A stretch of 64,000 bases of DNA, from the NCBI GenBank assembly GCA_016181965.1, contig JACOYH010000004.1, forward strand, positions 11,761 through 75,760, given 5' to 3'. The notes beneath the pieces were generated by a model. It searched no databases, was not told where the DNA came from, and was given only the letters and a program-made list of their open reading frames with translations. This document shows, one piece after another, positions 546 through 51,512 of this stretch. The position numbers and the translations under genes are program-made. This DNA is from Candidatus Nealsonbacteria bacterium. Lineage in GTDB: Bacteria > Patescibacteriota > Minisyncoccia > Minisyncoccales > MHMH01. Position 1 is the first letter of the stretch; each line of letters starts with the position of its first letter.

Positions 546-600
546 TTGACAGGGTTTTTATTTTGTGATAAGGTGCTTTATTCAGCACACTTTAGGAGGT
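546..600 (+). promoter_or_regulatory. Sigma70-like promoter (TTGACA-17-TAAGGT) plus AGGAGG ribosome-binding site serving the GC-rich ORF 605-1210
   Basis: TTGACA at 546-551, a -10-like hexamer 17 nt downstream, AGGAGG 5 nt before the ATG. Confidence 0.4.
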
Positions 601-604
601 TGTC

Positions 605-1210
605 ATGGAGTATCTGCACTGTCCAACGTGCCCGGGCTCGCGGCGGAAGGCCCACGACCTCGTCTGCGGCGAATGCTATCGCCGCTGGACCGAGGAAGCG
701 GCGACCGCCCTAGCCGGAGGGAGCTACGTCTCACTCCTGGGCTGGGCGAGCGCGGCCGTTACCGACCTGCTTCCGGCGCTGGAGAGCCAGCGCCAGGAAG
801 CGCAAGCCGGGCTGAATCGCCTCAACGAGACGATTCACGCCGAGGTCGTCGCGGCCCTCCAAAAAGCCGCGAAGGGCGCCACAATCGATCGCACCGTATG
901 GGCGAAGGCCTACAGCGATCGCAAGCAGGCGCTCTGGGCGCAACGCAACGGCAACGCGCTATACGCGCGGGTCAAGACCCTCGAAGGCCGCATCGCCTTC
1001 GGCCGTCACATCCTCGCGGACGCCGCCGCTCACGCTGTCGCAAAGCAGACCGCAGACGAGGCCGCAACCGACGAGGTCGCAACCGCCGAAGCACCCGCGC
1101 CTACTCGCCCGCGCAAGGTCCGGGGCGGCCGCGCCAGCGAGCGCCACGCCGTCCGCGACCTGGTCAACGACGACCCGGCCGTGGACGACGAGGACGGAGA
1201 AGACGCGTAA
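605..1210 (+). CDS. Hypothetical GC-rich protein with N-terminal CxxC...CxxC zinc ribbon; compositionally foreign
   Basis: About 68 percent GC against a 45 percent background; 201 aa ORF; strong promoter/RBS upstream and hairpin terminator downstream. Confidence 0.55.
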   Translation: MEYLHCPTCPGSRRKAHDLVCGECYRRWTEEAATALAGGSYVSLLGWASAAVTDLLPALESQRQEAQAGLNRLNETIHAEVVAALQKAAKGATIDRTVWAKAYSDRKQALWAQRNGNALYARVKTLEGRIAFGRHILADAAAHAVAKQTADEAATDEVATAEAPAPTRPRKVRGGRASERHAVRDLVNDDPAVDDEDGEDA

Positions 1211-1225
1211 TCTTCTCCTCCGCAC

Positions 1226-1262
1226 AAAAGGCCCCGAAGTCACACGACTTTCGGGGCCTTTC
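1226..1262. terminator. GC-rich hairpin followed by T-run (rho-independent terminator, possibly bidirectional)
   Basis: ggccccgaagtc...gactttcggggcc stem flanked by A/T runs. Confidence 0.55.
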
Positions 1263-2035
1263 CATTGAGGGATTTCGTAAATCCCTCACTTCTTCACTCT
1301 ATAAACATTTTTTTAATATCGTGTGTATTTTTTTCGTAATATTTCAGCCAATTTATAAAAAAATCCTTGTATTCTTTTGGATCCTCAAAAAATCTATGCA
1401 TAAATTCATAATCTATTATAGATGGAAAATTTTTAATCCCCCACCAATCCATATGACCAGACCAACGATAATTTTCTAAAAATTTTAGGGCAGTTTTAAT
1501 TTCTGGATCCGTTAAACCTTTTTCTTTCCATTTATGCTTCCATAAATCCAGAGGATTAGAATGAATATAACAAATTAACTGGAGCGCCTGCGTGTCGTTT
1601 TCTACTAAAACCTTCTTATATCTTCCTTGAAATAATGCCCCGCTCCTCTCGTATTTAGTATTAAAAAAATTAGCTAAACCTACACCGATCTTTCTATGAA
1701 ACAAGGCGAGGCTCCCATCTTTTATCGGTGAGGAAAAAAAATGGTAATGATTTGGCATAAAACACCAAGCTCCCATACTAACTAAAATTTCTCTCATCTC
1801 TTTCTCTGCGCCCTCCGGCGATTTGAGGGATTTCGTAAATCCCTCAAATCGCCGATCGAGGTTAACGACAGAATTAATATTATTAAACTCATAAAGATCG
1901 TGTGCCCCCCGAAGGTAATCTAAATTATCCAAGAATATTTTTCTTTTTTCCACGCCTCTATTATAAGTATGATAAAACTCCATAGGGTTATAACAGTCTA
2001 CCAAAGATTGAGGGATTTCGTAAATCCCTCAGTTA
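1262..2035 (-). mobile_element. IS200/IS605- or RAYT-like element: Y1 HuH transposase gene flanked by identical palindromes
   Basis: GAGGGATTTCGTAAATCCCTC at 1267-1287 and 2010-2030, plus an extended 39-bp copy inside the gene at 1816-1854. Confidence 0.6.
1294..1983 (-). CDS. Y1 (HuH) tyrosine transposase, IS200-like / REP-associated (RAYT-like)
   Basis: N-terminal YHTYNRG, HuH motif MPNHYHF, C-terminal LFQGRY...ICYIHSNPL; ATG at 1983 preferred over the upstream TTG at 2004. Confidence 0.7.
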   Translation of the reverse strand: MEFYHTYNRGVEKRKIFLDNLDYLRGAHDLYEFNNINSVVNLDRRFEGFTKSLKSPEGAEKEMREILVSMGAWCFMPNHYHFFSSPIKDGSLALFHRKIGVGLANFFNTKYERSGALFQGRYKKVLVENDTQALQLICYIHSNPLDLWKHKWKEKGLTDPEIKTALKFLENYRWSGHMDWWGIKNFPSIIDYEFMHRFFEDPKEYKDFFINWLKYYEKNTHDIKKMFIE

Positions 2036-9870: not shown

Positions 9871-9940
9871 TGCTCAAAATTATACGCCATTCACAGTAAT
9901 TTTACAAGAAATTTTCGCTCTGATATTTGGGATGTCCAAA

Positions 9941-9961
9941 TACACGGGTGTCACCCGTGTA
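9941..9961. repeat. Palindrome TACACGGGTGTCACCCGTGTA (terminator-like); near-identical copy at 31374-31394
   Basis: Perfect 10-bp arms with a 1-nt loop; recurs elsewhere in the window. Confidence 0.6.
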
Positions 9962-9974
9962 TCAGATTATTACT

Positions 9975-31370: not shown

Positions 31371-31398
31371 AAATACACGGGTGACACCCGTGTATTTT
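31371..31398. terminator. Palindrome AAATACACGGGTGACACCCGTGTATTTT (bidirectional terminator; same family as 9941)
   Basis: 10-bp stem flanked by A-run and T-run. Confidence 0.6.
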
Positions 31399-31633: not shown

Positions 31634-31698
31634 ATGTTTCTAAGCCCATTATATCGCACGGCGAAAATCCCTGTCAAATATTTGTTCGGCAGCGAGTT

Positions 31699-31746
31699 GG
31701 TTGAAGCCAGGCTCTAACCGAGCTCGGTTAGAGCCTGGCTTCAACC
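31699..31746. repeat. REP-like 48-bp palindrome GGTTGAAGCCAGGCTCTAACCGA...TCGGTTAGAGCCTGGCTTCAACC
   Basis: Perfect inverted repeat; family members at 43835-43892, 48645-48678 and 50591-50624. Confidence 0.7.
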
Positions 31747-31755
31747 AAACAAAGT

Positions 31756-38509: not shown

Positions 38510-38602
38510 ATTTTGTTTTTTTAAAAATAAAGCCCGTTTTCCAACGGACAATTTTTCATAGCAACCAATATCTGCTTGCAGTATATAAAAACCATCAACT
38601 CC

Positions 38603-38645
38603 TGTCAAGCGCAAAGTTAAAGGGCGGCCTTAATTGGTCGCCCTT
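38603..38645. repeat. 43-bp module: terminator hairpin of the upstream gene plus TTGACA -35 of the downstream promoter; second copy at 39253-39295
   Basis: TGTCAAGCGCAAAGTTAAAGGGCGGCCTTAATTGGTCGCCCTT; copies differ at 1 nt. Confidence 0.6.
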
Positions 38646-38654
38646 CTTATTATT

Positions 38655-39191
38655 TTAGCGCAAAAGCTCAATGCTTACCGTAACAACGCCGGTGGCAAGC
38701 GAAGCAATTTCAGAGAATGCCGCCGCCGACAAATCAAGCGCATGCGCAAAAGCGCCCGTGTCATTAATTGTGACTACCACGGATTTTCCGTTGACCGCAT
38801 TAGTTATCCTAGCCACGGTGTCGCAGGGCAAGGAATTACTCGCTGCGGTTAACAAACCGGAGTCATAAATTTTACCGCACGCTGTGCGCTTCCCTTCAAA
38901 GCCGGGTCCGTACCAAGTAGAGCTACCGACTTGCGCAAAGCGCCATTGGTTCGCATTGTTTTCGGGAATAAGCAGCTTTTGACCTGCTTTAATAAGGTTT
39001 GGGTTGGCAATTTGGCCTTGATTGGCATACCATATTTGCTGCCAGTTTGACCAATCGCCCCAAATCTTACTGCTTATTCCTAAAAGCGTATCCCCCGGCT
39101 GGACAGTGTAATATTCAGCTCCCATAGCTGTGGCGGGAAATGCGAAGGCGGCGAGAATTAAGGCAGTCAGTACTGCAATAATTTTCGACAT
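38655..39191 (-). CDS. Secreted LysM + RlpA-like double-psi beta-barrel protein
   Basis: Signal peptide; LysM YTVQPGDTLLGIS...IKAGQKLLIP; DPBB WYGPGFEGKRTACG...VVVTINDTG. Confidence 0.75.
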   Translation of the reverse strand: MSKIIAVLTALILAAFAFPATAMGAEYYTVQPGDTLLGISSKIWGDWSNWQQIWYANQGQIANPNLIKAGQKLLIPENNANQWRFAQVGSSTWYGPGFEGKRTACGKIYDSGLLTAASNSLPCDTVARITNAVNGKSVVVTINDTGAFAHALDLSAAAFSEIASLATGVVTVSIELLR

Positions 39192-39252
39192 TCTGTTCCT
39201 CCTTGCTCTCTTTATTTTGTGCTGTTCGCTTTATAGACGAAATTTTTATTTA

Positions 39253-39295
39253 TGTCAAGCGCAAAGTTAAAGGGCGGCCTTGATTGGTCGCCCTT
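39253..39295. repeat. Second copy of the 43-bp terminator/-35 module
   Basis: Forms the terminator for ORF 39304-39552 and the -35 for the rlpA-like promoter (TTGACA-17-TATAAA, AAGGAGG RBS). Confidence 0.6.
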
Positions 39296-39303
39296 GTGTT
39301 TTA

Positions 39304-39552
39304 TTAGCCGCCAGTTATGCGAGGAACAATTACGATCGTTTGCTCAACGCTCGGGTCGAATTTCTCGACACGCTCCGACAATTGGTCGGGCTCTGTCGCA
39401 AAGACCGTCGCGCCCCGAGCCGTCTCTTCTCGAAAAATCCTCTCTGCCTCGCGAACCGCCATCTCTGTTTCGGGGTCGCCAGACCCGACTTTCTCTGGCT
39501 CCCAAGCTACCACCTTGTCGCCACGCGACGACATAAGACGCAACCGTGCCAT
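39304..39552 (-). CDS. GC-rich small protein ending in Gly-Gly (possible ThiS/MoaD/ubiquitin-like beta-grasp)
   Basis: About 60 percent GC; AAAGGAGAGG RBS before the MARLRL start; C-terminus ...TIVIVPRITGG followed directly by a stop. Confidence 0.45.
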   Translation of the reverse strand: MARLRLMSSRGDKVVAWEPEKVGSGDPETEMAVREAERIFREETARGATVFATEPDQLSERVEKFDPSVEQTIVIVPRITGG

Positions 39553-39606
39553 TTCCTCTCCTTTTCTTTGGGAATATTGTATTTTTTTATTACATAATTC
39601 ACAGAA

Positions 39607-39642
39607 CTTGTCAATACGAATGTTAGACATTCAATGTCTAAC
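39607..39642 (-). promoter_or_regulatory. Promoter -35 (TTGACA) overlapping a 21-bp perfect palindrome GTTAGACATTCAATGTCTAAC (operator-like) upstream of the GC-rich ORF
   Basis: Minus-strand TTGACA-N17-TAATAA, AGGAGAGG RBS; palindrome immediately 5' of the -35. Confidence 0.4.
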
Positions 39643-39666
39643 CCGCTAACGAAGTTGGCGCGCCGC

Positions 39667-41442: not shown

Positions 41443-42906
41443 TTAACTCACCCAATATTTTTGCTTTGTCATCTCGTCTCTTTTCATTTCCAACCTTTCC
41501 CGGTCTTTCTTGGCTCTTTCACTCAAAGCGCTCAACTCCTCTTCAGAAAGTTTGCCCAATTTTTTCATTTCTCTAAGTAAAAACTCTTTTTTGTTTGCCT
41601 TGGGGTCTTCCAGCACCTTTCCTAACAAAATGTCAAGTATTTGTCCAATTTTAGGGGATGGCACAATTCTTAATTGTGACATTACGTCGTGGCCTGTCAC
41701 ATTTAATTGTGACATTGAGATAGGGTTTTGTGACACTTTATCAATAATGTATTTCAAATGTCTCAATTTGTACGGTTCGGCCTTGGGCACACCCGAGCCG
41801 ATTCTGTCGGCCATTCTCACCTGCAAAAGTTCTTCCATGTTTTCCGGGCCCACTTGTCGAACCAACCGCCTCACCGACGATTCCGTAACCTCACCCACAT
41901 TATAGTAAAACAAATGATATCTGACTAATTTAGCTATTCTTTCAATGTCTTTCTTTGGAAACTTAAGCCGGTCAAGTATGGTCGTAGCCATTTTTGCCCC
42001 TACGGTTTCGTGATTATAAAAAGTGGCGCTTGGTCCATCGCCCCGCTTAACTTTTGGCTTAGCTATATCGTGGAGTAGGGCAGCCACCCTAACATATATA
42101 CTAAAGCCCTGTTTGGCTGCATATTCCAATGACTTCACCGAGTGCTCGTAACAGCTATAAATATGGTGCTTGTTTTGAGCAACATTATAACCCTCTATCA
42201 ATTCGGGCAAAATGTATGCCAAAAGCCCCAGTTCCCTTAAAAATTCAATGCCCTCGGCCGCCCTTTCTGACATCATAATTTTGAGCAGTTCATCTCGTAT
42301 TCTCTCCTTGGAAATGGCCTGCAACCAAGCGGCGTTTTCCTTAATAGCAAATGCGGTTTTTGCTTCGATTCGCCAGTCATTGCCAAGAACAGCGGCAAAT
42401 CTGACCGCCCTCAACATCCTCAAAGCATCTTCGTTGAATCTTTCCTTTGGGTCGCCAACTGTTTTAATGACTTTGGCCTTCAAGTCCTGCTGACCGCCAA
42501 AAGGATCAATTCGGTTGACACCTGGTGTCAACCAGCCCAAGGCCATGGCGTTTATTGTGAAATCCCTACGAGACAGATCCTCTTGAAGCGTTTTAGCGTA
42601 TTTAACCTCATCGGGATGCCTTTTGTCAGAATATTTGGCCTCGGAACGAAAAGCGGTAACTTCTATTTCATTCAATCTTTTGCTTTTACTGCCTGTTTGC
42701 ACTGTCACGGTCAAAAATTGATTCTCGTAAAAACTTTTCTCAAAGAGCCGCTGGATTTCTTCTGGCTTGGCATTAGTGGTTATATCCCAATCCATGGGCT
42801 CCACGCCTCGCAAAAGATCCCTGACGCAACCACCGACAATATATGCCTCAAAACCGGCCTTTTTGAGGGCCTGCAAAACTAATTTTACTTCTTTTGGAAT
42901 AGCCAT
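41443..42906 (-). CDS. cca: CCA-adding enzyme (tRNA nucleotidyltransferase with HD domain)
   Basis: Pol-beta head GGCVRDLLRGVEPMDWDITT, ...RRDFTINA, HD motif LHDIAKP; MAIPKE start chosen because the longer ORF overlaps the tRNA. Confidence 0.85.
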   Translation of the reverse strand: MAIPKEVKLVLQALKKAGFEAYIVGGCVRDLLRGVEPMDWDITTNAKPEEIQRLFEKSFYENQFLTVTVQTGSKSKRLNEIEVTAFRSEAKYSDKRHPDEVKYAKTLQEDLSRRDFTINAMALGWLTPGVNRIDPFGGQQDLKAKVIKTVGDPKERFNEDALRMLRAVRFAAVLGNDWRIEAKTAFAIKENAAWLQAISKERIRDELLKIMMSERAAEGIEFLRELGLLAYILPELIEGYNVAQNKHHIYSCYEHSVKSLEYAAKQGFSIYVRVAALLHDIAKPKVKRGDGPSATFYNHETVGAKMATTILDRLKFPKKDIERIAKLVRYHLFYYNVGEVTESSVRRLVRQVGPENMEELLQVRMADRIGSGVPKAEPYKLRHLKYIIDKVSQNPISMSQLNVTGHDVMSQLRIVPSPKIGQILDILLGKVLEDPKANKKEFLLREMKKLGKLSEEELSALSERAKKDRERLEMKRDEMTKQKYWVS

Positions 42907-43834: not shown

Positions 43835-43892
43835 GGTTGTTTGGTTGAAGCCAGGCTCTAACCGAACAGAGCCTGGCTTCAACCAAACAACC
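43835..43892. repeat. REP-like palindrome (25-bp arms) of the GAAGCCAGGCT family
   Basis: GGTTGTTTGGTTGAAGCCAGGCTCT...AGAGCCTGGCTTCAACCAAACAACC. Confidence 0.7.
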
Positions 43893-48632: not shown

Positions 48633-48644
48633 GGGCGGCCGTAA

Positions 48645-48709
48645 GAAGCCAGGCTTCCCGCGGGAAGCCTGGCTTCTCGGTCCCGGGTCCCGCGGGAAGC
48701 CGGGCTTCT
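48645..48709. repeat. REP-like palindrome AGAAGCCAGGCTTCCCGCGGGAAGCCTGGCTTCT plus adjacent half-copy
   Basis: Identical to the element at 50591-50624. Confidence 0.7.
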
Positions 48710-50590: not shown

Positions 50591-50624
50591 AGAAGCCAGG
50601 CTTCCCGCGGGAAGCCTGGCTTCT
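50591..50624. repeat. REP-like palindrome AGAAGCCAGGCTTCCCGCGGGAAGCCTGGCTTCT
   Basis: Perfect 34-bp palindrome; copy of 48645-48678. Confidence 0.7.
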
Positions 50625-50663
50625 TTTACCCCGGTCGTTCACTGTTCGTGGTACAATTGATGA

Positions 50664-51512
50664 ATGGATCTGACTTCAAAAAAGACCATCAAAGAACTAC
50701 TCGCAAGGCAAGGCGCTATGCCATCCAAGCGCTTGGGCCAAAATTTTTTAATTGATAAAGGCGCTGTCAGACAAATAATTGAAGCAGCCGATGTCGACAG
50801 CCAAGATACGGTTTTAGAGATTGGCCCGGGGCTTGGCGTGATTACTCAAGAACTTGCGAAAAAAGTAAAACAAGTTATTGCCGTGGAAAAAGACAAAAAG
50901 ATGGTTGATTTGCTGAAAGAAACATTAAAAGATTATAAGAATATTGAAATAATCACTGGCGATATTAGGGAATCGGATTTTCTAAAAAGGAAATCGGATT
51001 TCCTAAAATATAAAGTCGTCGGCAATCTCCCGTTTTACCTTACGGCTCCGGTTATCCGCCAATTCCTCGAGCTGGTTGACACCAGGTGTCAACCAGCTCA
51101 AATGACGTTGGTGGTCCAGAAAGAGGTAGGGCAGAGAATATGCCAAAAGCCGCCGCGGATGAACCTATTGGCCGTCTCGGTGCAAATTTACGCAGAACCG
51201 CAGATCATTGCTTATATTCCAAAAACATCTTTCTGGCCCCAACCAAAAGTGGACGCGGCCATTGTCAGCATCATCCCAACCTCAAGCCAAAACTTGCGGA
51301 CGACGGGCGTCCGCGAGTTCTTCAAAATAGTGAAAGCGGGGTTTTCCCAACCGAGGAAACAGCTGGTAAATAATTTTTCAGGACAGCTTAAAATAGATAA
51401 GAATAAAATCAGCGCCTGGCTACATCAAAACGACATTAATCCAAAACGCCGAGCCGAAACACTTACGATAGGCGACTGGATTAACTTGGCTAAAAGTTTT
51501 AGAATAGGATAA
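50664..51512 (+). CDS. rsmA: 16S rRNA (adenine1518/1519-N6)-dimethyltransferase
   Basis: LGQNFLID, SAM-binding VLEIGPGLG, N(L/I)PY motif. Confidence 0.9.
   Translation: MDLTSKKTIKELLARQGAMPSKRLGQNFLIDKGAVRQIIEAADVDSQDTVLEIGPGLGVITQELAKKVKQVIAVEKDKKMVDLLKETLKDYKNIEIITGDIRESDFLKRKSDFLKYKVVGNLPFYLTAPVIRQFLELVDTRCQPAQMTLVVQKEVGQRICQKPPRMNLLAVSVQIYAEPQIIAYIPKTSFWPQPKVDAAIVSIIPTSSQNLRTTGVREFFKIVKAGFSQPRKQLVNNFSGQLKIDKNKISAWLHQNDINPKRRAETLTIGDWINLAKSFRIG

Follow-up and report, generated by a model that had tools for sequence, protein, structure and literature searches.

A solo Gly-Gly-terminal protein gene in Candidatus Nealsonbacteria, its Chloroflexota-centred family and the palindrome at its promoter

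A 64-kb window of DNA from Candidatus Nealsonbacteria, a very small groundwater bacterium of the candidate phyla radiation (CPR), carries on its minus strand a small GC-rich gene (39304-39552; all coordinates without a contig name refer to this window, the whole stretch that was analysed), whose product ends in Gly-Gly directly before the stop codon and whose promoter lies close to a perfect 21-bp palindrome. What kind of protein does such a gene encode, how did it come to stand in this genome, and does the palindrome take part in its control? We find that the product is a member of an undescribed, Chloroflexota-centred family of Gly-Gly-terminal proteins. In our judgement the best overall explanation, with a probability of about 0.4, is that the Nealsonbacteria gene is a transferred solo copy of a beta-grasp-like carrier or modifier that works via its C-terminal glycine, and that the palindrome is of the REP (repetitive extragenic palindromic) type.

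The gene is real and is equipped with expression signals. A list of open reading frames (ORFs) gives a minus-strand frame of 108 aa at 39304-39630, within which an internal ATG at 39552 yields a product of 82 aa (MARLRL...TIVIVPRITGG, then the stop codon). This ATG was chosen as the start because a Shine-Dalgarno-like AGGAGAGG lies upstream of it, NCBI annotates the same 82-aa extent as a hypothetical protein of the Candidatus Nealsonbacteria metagenome-assembled genome, and the homologues recovered in the family search all start at the equivalent Met. On direct reading, AGGAGAGG occupies 39562-39555 of the minus strand and ends 2 nt short of the ATG. Farther upstream on the same strand are a -10-like hexamer, TAATAA, with a TG before it (39587-39592), which is imperfect in having no T at position 6, and a -35 hexamer, TTGACA (39609-39614), 16 nt upstream of it. 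A consensus promoter scan did not list this promoter, having missed it on account of the absent T. A preliminary description of the sequence had proposed a GC-rich product of about 82 aa ending TIVIVPRITGG, a ribosome-binding site and a TTGACA-N17-TAATAA promoter; the product, the ribosome-binding site and both hexamers stand, and only the spacer, at 16 rather than 17 nt, does not. On the 3' side, 8 nt past the stop codon, a terminator-like hairpin is followed by an interrupted U-tract, UUUAACUUU (39270-39295, minus strand; folding energy -14.4 kcal/mol, z = -2.8).

The gene has a GC content of 57.8%, and of 61.4% at third codon positions (GC3), compared with 45.5 +/- 3.5% and 47.1 +/- 5.3%, respectively, for 63 long ORFs of the window. 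An assembly chimera is excluded, the locus being present at 100% identity in two independent assemblies. On the plus strand, three long ORFs (94, 105 and 110 aa; 39252-39649) overlap the gene, and these opposing frames appear to be a by-product of GC-rich codon usage and not extra genes. A non-coding RNA at 39304-39630, where four of the six frames are open, was considered and rejected, because conservation at the protein level settles the coding frame; a search of the gene region with Rfam gave nothing at gathering thresholds or at E <= 10.

To which proteins, then, is the product related? The gene had been described as an orphan, a status also suggested by a word-indexed protein search with the single sequence, which found only the protein itself. 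An exhaustive phmmer search of 1.84 billion cluster representatives with the window protein overturned it. At E <= 1e-3 there were 171 representatives, and at E <= 1e-10 there were 57, which matched residues 1-82 of the window protein (E = 1e-19 to 1e-10); 351 encoding loci were found in species-representative genomes (one genome per species). The relatives are mostly 81-82 aa long and align from end to end, and the family profile matches the window protein at E = 1.3e-28. The best 80 of the 351 loci are nearly all from Chloroflexota (Ktedonobacteria, Thermogemmatispora, Chloroflexia and Chlorohelix), and three Thermogemmatispora genomes hold two copies each. In an alignment of 70 sequences the near-invariant positions are G11, W17, A36, G47 and F65, all kept in the window protein, and the strongest conservation outside the tail is in the helix AAVREAERIF. 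The window protein thus belongs to the family by similarity, by conserved residues and by its terminal Gly-Gly, and departs from it in having no downstream partner gene (see below). Neither Pfam nor NCBIfam gave a match for the window protein at E <= 10, PADLOC gave none for the family, and sequence and profile searches of the PDB returned only coiled-coil or ribosomal protein S7 noise; nothing relevant was found in the literature on this family in Chloroflexota or CPR bacteria. A phage origin was rejected, as no relatives were present in the viral contigs of IMG/VR.

The tail is the most constrained part of these proteins. Both G81 and G82 are invariant in all 70 aligned members, and the stop codon follows Gly-Gly directly in all 80 genomic copies inspected. 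Across these 80 copies glycine is encoded by any of its four codons, translation ends at any of the three stop codons, and GGAGG is present in only 22, so that it is the protein that is constrained, not a ribosome-binding site within its codons. On the same count, and because solo copies retain Gly-Gly as well, we rejected the idea that Gly-Gly is kept as a ribosome-binding site for the partner gene that follows. About one tenth of the metagenomic relatives have 1-15 additional residues past Gly-Gly, and there is a single Gly-Gly-Gln variant (P0123). In two independent metagenomic proteins, P0079 (238 aa) and P0024, a linker of about 10 residues joins the Gly-Gly domain in frame to a complete GreA transcription-elongation factor, which leaves Gly-Gly internal, as in a ubiquitin-fusion precursor. 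The linkage to GreA at which these two fusions hint was rejected, there being no GreA gene adjoining any fetched locus or in the window.

In 73 of 80 species-genome loci, and in 79 of 90 if all fetched loci are included, the Gly-Gly gene is directly followed by a second unannotated gene of the same orientation, which often overlaps its stop codon; in the Chloroflexota family the Gly-Gly gene is the first in a tight two-gene operon, an undescribed conserved module. The partner is 131-166 aa long (about 140) and consists of an N-terminal hydrophobic helix and a conserved domain of about 100 aa, with the motif ...GYLEVPS..R.YRIP...V.VYE.G....LC.QP...P..D...HKLMIE.NE.EYL..AN and invariant C, S, R, Y and N residues. 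Basic residues right after the hydrophobic helix suggest that this domain faces the cytoplasm. For the partner no match was obtained in Pfam, NCBIfam, PADLOC or the PDB; a search of 5.8 billion proteins gave 700 relatives, and the 120 listed among them are all unnamed or "hypothetical" and include no fusions. The partner was tried as an E2 and rejected (hhalign against UBE2D2, 0.2% probability). When neighbouring ORFs were clustered across about 90 homologous loci, the partner was the only gene that they widely had in common, none of the neighbours was an E1, E2 or JAMM gene, and ThiF, MoeB, MoaE and ThiG are not conserved neighbours at these loci. Riboswitch control was likewise rejected, since none, including those for thiamine pyrophosphate (TPP) and molybdenum cofactor (Moco), was found upstream of the homologues in 12 loci.

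One paralogue in the Ktedonobacteria lineage has the conserved gene order Asp23-FakA-DegV-double zinc-ribbon protein-Gly-Gly gene-partner-DUF3090; examples of this synteny with the fatty-acid kinase genes FakA/DegV, among loci L010-L089, are L087 (3966-5650) and L041 (5449-6045). Solo copies account for 8 of the 90 loci and occur in Chloroflexota and other groundwater organisms. Two further contigs deserve mention: L123 (657-1136) comes from a low-GC organism (40.6%) that has a Gly-Gly/partner pair in which the partner carries Ala in place of an otherwise invariant His, and L122 (105-353), a contig from Hainich groundwater, has a solo gene, with its own terminator, that belongs to a divergent "GH...LPIAGG" subfamily.

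Does the protein have the fold that its tail brings to mind? An AlphaFold2 model made with the 70-sequence family alignment reached a predicted local distance difference test score (pLDDT) of 91.1 and a predicted template-modelling score (pTM) of 0.77; a single-sequence model without the alignment was poor (pLDDT 56). The model has strands at 2-6 and 13-17, a helix at 27-45, strands at 49-53, 60-61 and 72-76, and a flexible tail of low confidence, and this predicted order, b1-b2-a1-b3-b4-b5, is that of the beta-grasp fold. Foldseek found no significant match to the model in the PDB (best E = 0.07, TM 0.3-0.46), although the top 50 are mostly ubiquitin-like beta-grasp domains (PB1, USP UBL, Raf RBD, RA, FERM F1, DIX, MoaD, a ubiquitin variant and RnfH), and a fold search of BFVD was likewise weak and dominated by ubiquitin-like beta-grasp matches. 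Mean-field coevolution analysis of 220 near-gapless sequences (effective number about 135), which was noisy and in an earlier run had been dominated by gap artefacts, gave an antiparallel b1/b2 hairpin, a parallel b1/b5 pairing and packing of the helix on b3/b5, contacts that fit what a beta-grasp requires. We consider a beta-grasp fold, as modelled, to be likely but unproven.

In a profile comparison, hhalign gave 5.7% probability against E. coli MoaD, over the C-terminal 22 columns only, and 0.6% against ubiquitin, over the C-terminal strand and tail only. In these alignments the tail VPRxxGG is set against PPVTGG of MoaD and LRLRGG of ubiquitin, with Arg at the position of ubiquitin R72. 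A match to Pfam ThiS was seen in one of the 70 family members and was sub-threshold (E = 0.0025). The earlier proposal of a beta-grasp Gly-Gly protein like ThiS, MoaD or ubiquitin is partly supported, at the level of predicted fold and invariant tail, whereas membership of the ThiS/MoaD family is not supported by sequence, there being no Pfam, NCBIfam or PDB match.

How did a gene of this family come to stand in a CPR genome? A homologue of the partner is absent from the whole window (tblastn best E = 0.6). The nearest relatives of the window protein are partnered Chloroflexota genes at no more than 58.5% identity, and protein searches found no close relative in any other CPR genome. Taken together, the foreign composition, the phylogenetic isolation and an AT-rich promoter region of host type point to horizontal transfer, long ago, of the first operon gene alone, which has been kept intact since. 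In line with the preliminary description, which had reported no E1-like, JAMM or E2-like partner nearby, Pfam scans of 47 ORFs detected no E1, E2, JAMM, ThiF or UBC-type gene in the window, and a motif screen of all its ORFs of at least 80 aa detected no E1, JAMM or E2 gene.

On the explanation that we prefer, the gene would have arrived or survived in Nealsonbacteria without its partner and would now stand behind host-type expression signals. The protein would be a ubiquitin-like carrier or modifier in which the carboxylate of the C-terminal glycine is what reacts or is recognised: an unlinked adenylating enzyme would activate it, or it would enter the Cys-containing site of the partner at the cytoplasmic face of the membrane. 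In the Chloroflexota such a carrier would cooperate with the membrane partner, and in the CPR host it would act alone or with host factors. This view draws on the predicted fold, on the free Gly-Gly, which is conserved without exception, and on analogy; what would happen chemically at the C-terminus, and what the protein might do in the CPR host, is our inference.

The main rival of this view has the protein act non-covalently, as a regulatory or adaptor subunit. It would bind, regulate or chaperone the membrane partner, its Gly-Gly tail plugging a pocket with no activation chemistry, and the CPR copy would be idle or have some other target. Much of what is described above would suit it: the operon is tight and translationally coupled, the conserved helix AAVREAERIF outside the tail is what would be expected of an interaction face, no activating enzyme is linked at any locus, and the in-frame GreA fusions P0079 and P0024 hold Gly-Gly internally. 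However, a tail that served binding alone would not usually keep a free C-terminal Gly-Gly without exception, with the stop codon next to it in 80 of 80 genomes, and solo copies persist in several lineages. We therefore regard the adaptor as a credible though rather unlikely account.

Is the palindrome, finally, an operator? At 39622-39642 (no strand assigned) stands GTTAGACATTCAATGTCTAAC, a perfect 10-1-10 palindrome (GTTAGACATT-C-AATGTCTAAC) that is unique in the window, with 0 chance matches expected, and remains single in the 64 kb even when 5 mismatches are allowed. It ends 7 nt from the -35 hexamer, which it had been said to abut, and lies 24 nt past the stop codon of the upstream gene; as an RNA hairpin it has a folding energy of -11.3 kcal/mol (z = -4.5). 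Although the window holds no further copy, the exact 21-mer (GTTAGACATT-N-AATGTCTAAC, with any central base) is present in 32 metagenome contigs (L090-L121) from groundwater and related samples, which have a GC content of 35-52% and unrelated flanks, and many of these copies are found shortly past the 3' end of a gene or in the space between two convergent genes. In L097, copies at 467-487 and 1187-1207 flank a Y1_Tnp (IS200-like) gene (Pfam E = 1.7e-11), homologues of which adjoin or lie near the palindrome in L110, L115 and L119, that of L110 being adjacent. Variants change both arms together, as in GTTAGACGC-TAA-GCGTCTAAC, and up to five variant copies are found within 1.5 kb in L095. This matches the definition of REP elements and REP-associated tyrosine transposases (RAYTs) by Nunvar et al. 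2010 (PMC2817692). Given the dispersal among 32 contigs, the two copies around a transposase gene and the compensatory stem changes, we consider it more likely, from sequence comparison, that the palindrome is a REP-type dispersed element, which may serve in addition as a 3' hairpin for the upstream gene or as a site bound by a protein.

The preliminary description had instead proposed repressor control. As an operator, GTTAGACATTSAATGTCTAAC would be bound by a dimeric transcription factor, conserved in groundwater CPR bacteria, that represses the Gly-Gly gene and others, and the palindrome's place just upstream of the -35 hexamer would fit, as would a -10-like hexamer 17-18 nt after its TTAGAC in L091/L101, L110 and L112, the overlap of a few copies with promoter-like hexamers, and the symmetric variants, which keep the half-sites matched. 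On the other hand, the genes flanking the copies share no theme, the frequent sites 3' of genes or between convergent genes, the bracketed Y1_Tnp gene of L097 with its homologues in L110, L115 and L119, and the cluster of variants in L095 speak against an operator, and no regulator gene is adjacent in the window. Repressor control is probably wrong, and we hold an operator to be improbable.

The window has a transposase-like gene of its own, a RAYT-like gene at 1402-1980 (minus strand). It escapes detection by Pfam but is homologous to the Y1 transposase of L097 (tblastn E = 2e-23, 32% identity), and it lies among three copies of a different palindrome, TTGAGGGATTTCGTAAATCCCTCA (1264-1291, 1822-1849 and 2007-2034). 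Gene and palindrome are probably this genome's own RAYT/REP pair. The only other window ORF as GC-rich as the Gly-Gly gene is a frame of 304 aa at 565-1479 (plus strand; 57.8% GC, no Pfam match). Since one of the palindromes lies inside it and it overlaps with the RAYT-like gene, its extent or its status as a gene is doubtful. Other short GC-rich palindromes occur in 2-4 copies each in the window (repeat families D3, D6, D7 and D12; 9938-9962, 31371-31395, 31697-31748, 43841-43865, 42513-42540, 51074-51101, 48644-48689 and 50591-50636), and these may be shared terminators or further REP-like elements.

Three other accounts of the protein are less likely than a transferred carrier or modifier. 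It might be a non-functional passenger, that is, a recently transferred operon fragment transcribed by chance and decaying, as the missing partner, the foreign composition and the absence of a close CPR relative in our searches could suggest. Yet its ORF is unbroken, with none of the family-invariant residues lost, a strong ribosome-binding site and a consensus -35 precede it, a terminator of its own follows it, its nearest relatives at about 59% identity imply long divergence without stops or frameshifts, and solo copies are maintained in Chloroflexota and other groundwater organisms as well; we think this improbable to a high degree. Slightly less plausible again is a toxin-antitoxin or defence-type module in which the 81-aa protein would be antidote or sensor, the membrane protein the effector and the CPR gene a stray antidote: the small overlapping two-gene architecture and the several copies per genome, in varied contexts and with signs of horizontal transfer, are set against the absence of PADLOC matches and IMG/VR relatives, and against a high conservation and stable Ktedonobacteria synteny, which suggest a core role in the cell and not the rapid evolution of a selfish or defence module. 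Least likely of all is that the protein serves cofactor or tRNA thiolation as a classical sulfur carrier of the ThiS/MoaD type, with its ThiF/MoeB encoded elsewhere in the genome. The length of 81-82 aa, the hydrophobic strand followed by P-x-(V/I)-x-G-G that resembles MoaD and the one sub-threshold ThiS match in the family would fit, but the window protein matches nothing in Pfam or NCBIfam, the partner that the family conserves is a membrane protein, and neither MoaE, ThiG, ThiF and MoeB as conserved neighbours nor TPP and Moco riboswitches were found at the loci inspected. To our knowledge, CPR genomes generally lack ThiS/MoaD-type pathways.

A more far-reaching version of the carrier or modifier view, which we offer as speculation only, is that the Gly-Gly protein and its Cys-bearing membrane partner make up a minimal system of ubiquitin-like transfer that has so far gone unrecognised and belongs to the core of Ktedonobacteria and Chloroflexia, with the partner as an unconventional E2-like ligase or acceptor at the membrane, and that the Nealsonbacteria gene was captured and works with other host machinery. 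A lipid or envelope target for the pair is conceivable, as the pair of one subfamily adjoins fatty-acid kinase genes. If the carrier or modifier view holds, a phylum-wide bacterial ubiquitin-like family would have been missed by Pfam, NCBIfam, PADLOC and the solved-structure sequence searches used here, and its pairing with an unknown membrane protein instead of E1, E2 or JAMM would widen the range of prokaryotic ubiquitin-like and sulfur-carrier systems. The two-gene system is open to tests in culturable Thermogemmatispora or Chloroflexus strains. The window itself documents gene transfer from a Chloroflexota-like donor to a reduced CPR genome, and its palindrome is strikingly conserved in groundwater CPR-like genomes, where it behaves like a REP/RAYT repeat.

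The gene upstream of the Gly-Gly gene encodes a membrane protein of 132 aa, and Pfam scans of the 47 window ORFs identified ordinary CPR housekeeping genes only, including those for NusA, H+-pyrophosphatase, ClpP, RNase Y, type IV pilus proteins, the CCA-adding enzyme, PNPase, FtsH and IF-2. On the 3' side, the Gly-Gly gene is separated by 112 nt only from a LysM/DPBB gene (38655-39191), which is bracketed by two minus-strand copies of a 74-nt module that are 78% identical (repeat family D2). Copy B (39222-39295) combines the terminator with a TTGACA-N17-TATAAA promoter for the downstream LysM/DPBB gene, as read from the sequence, and copy A (38572-38645), 3' of the LysM/DPBB gene, supplies TTGACA-N17-TATACT for nusA (promoter match 11/12). 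The duplicated 43-bp terminator module reported earlier is thus a true duplication, with a core of about 44 nt in which one base differs, and is more exactly a terminator-plus-promoter cassette within the 74-nt repeat. The module copies on both sides of the LysM/DPBB gene suggest that a gene cassette was inserted or duplicated at this site.

Among known systems, MoaD/ThiS (Pfam PF02597) resembles the family in its length, close to 81 aa, in an order of strands and helix that in the family is predicted and fits a beta-grasp, and in a flexible tail with free Gly-Gly after a hydrophobic strand and a proline, as in ...IVIVPRITGG of the window protein beside E. coli MoaD, which we take to end in ...VAFFPPVTGG. 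The family differs in having no significant sequence or profile similarity to MoaD/ThiS and, at about 90 loci, a conserved membrane-anchored partner in place of an adjacent ThiF/MoeB, MoaE or ThiG; as to adenylyltransferases and acceptors, no ThiF/MoeB, MoaE, ThiG or CysM-like gene was found in the 64-kb window or among the conserved neighbours of the homologues. The ubiquitin-like conjugation systems of bacteria and archaea (Bil, Bub, CBASS-Cap2-type operons, TtuB and SAMPs) are defined by linked genes for E1, usually E2, and JAMM or other peptidases. With them the family shares a small protein, a predicted ubiquitin-like fold and an obligatory C-terminal Gly-Gly, and the minority of homologues with 1-15 residues after Gly-Gly recalls ubiquitin-like precursors; it differs in having neither E1, E2 nor JAMM in the window or at about 90 homologous loci, and no PADLOC match. 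Pup, too, is a small bacterial protein whose C-terminal Gly-Gly region is its functional end; Pup is intrinsically disordered and ends in Gly-Gly-Gln/Glu, whereas the present family is confidently predicted to be folded and ends in Gly-Gly, P0123 being the one Gly-Gly-Gln variant. As for the palindrome, REPs usually number > 100 per genome (PMC2817692), and the single copy of the 21-bp palindrome in the 64-kb window, together with a RAYT-like gene there that is flanked by a different palindrome, is unlike that. The two copies in L097 share their central base on the same strand, and a perfect palindrome gives no readable inverted orientation. The likeness to REP/RAYT systems lies in a short extragenic palindrome that is dispersed in unrelated intergenic sites, in the Y1 transposase gene between two copies in L097 (not in the window), and in arms that change in pairs.

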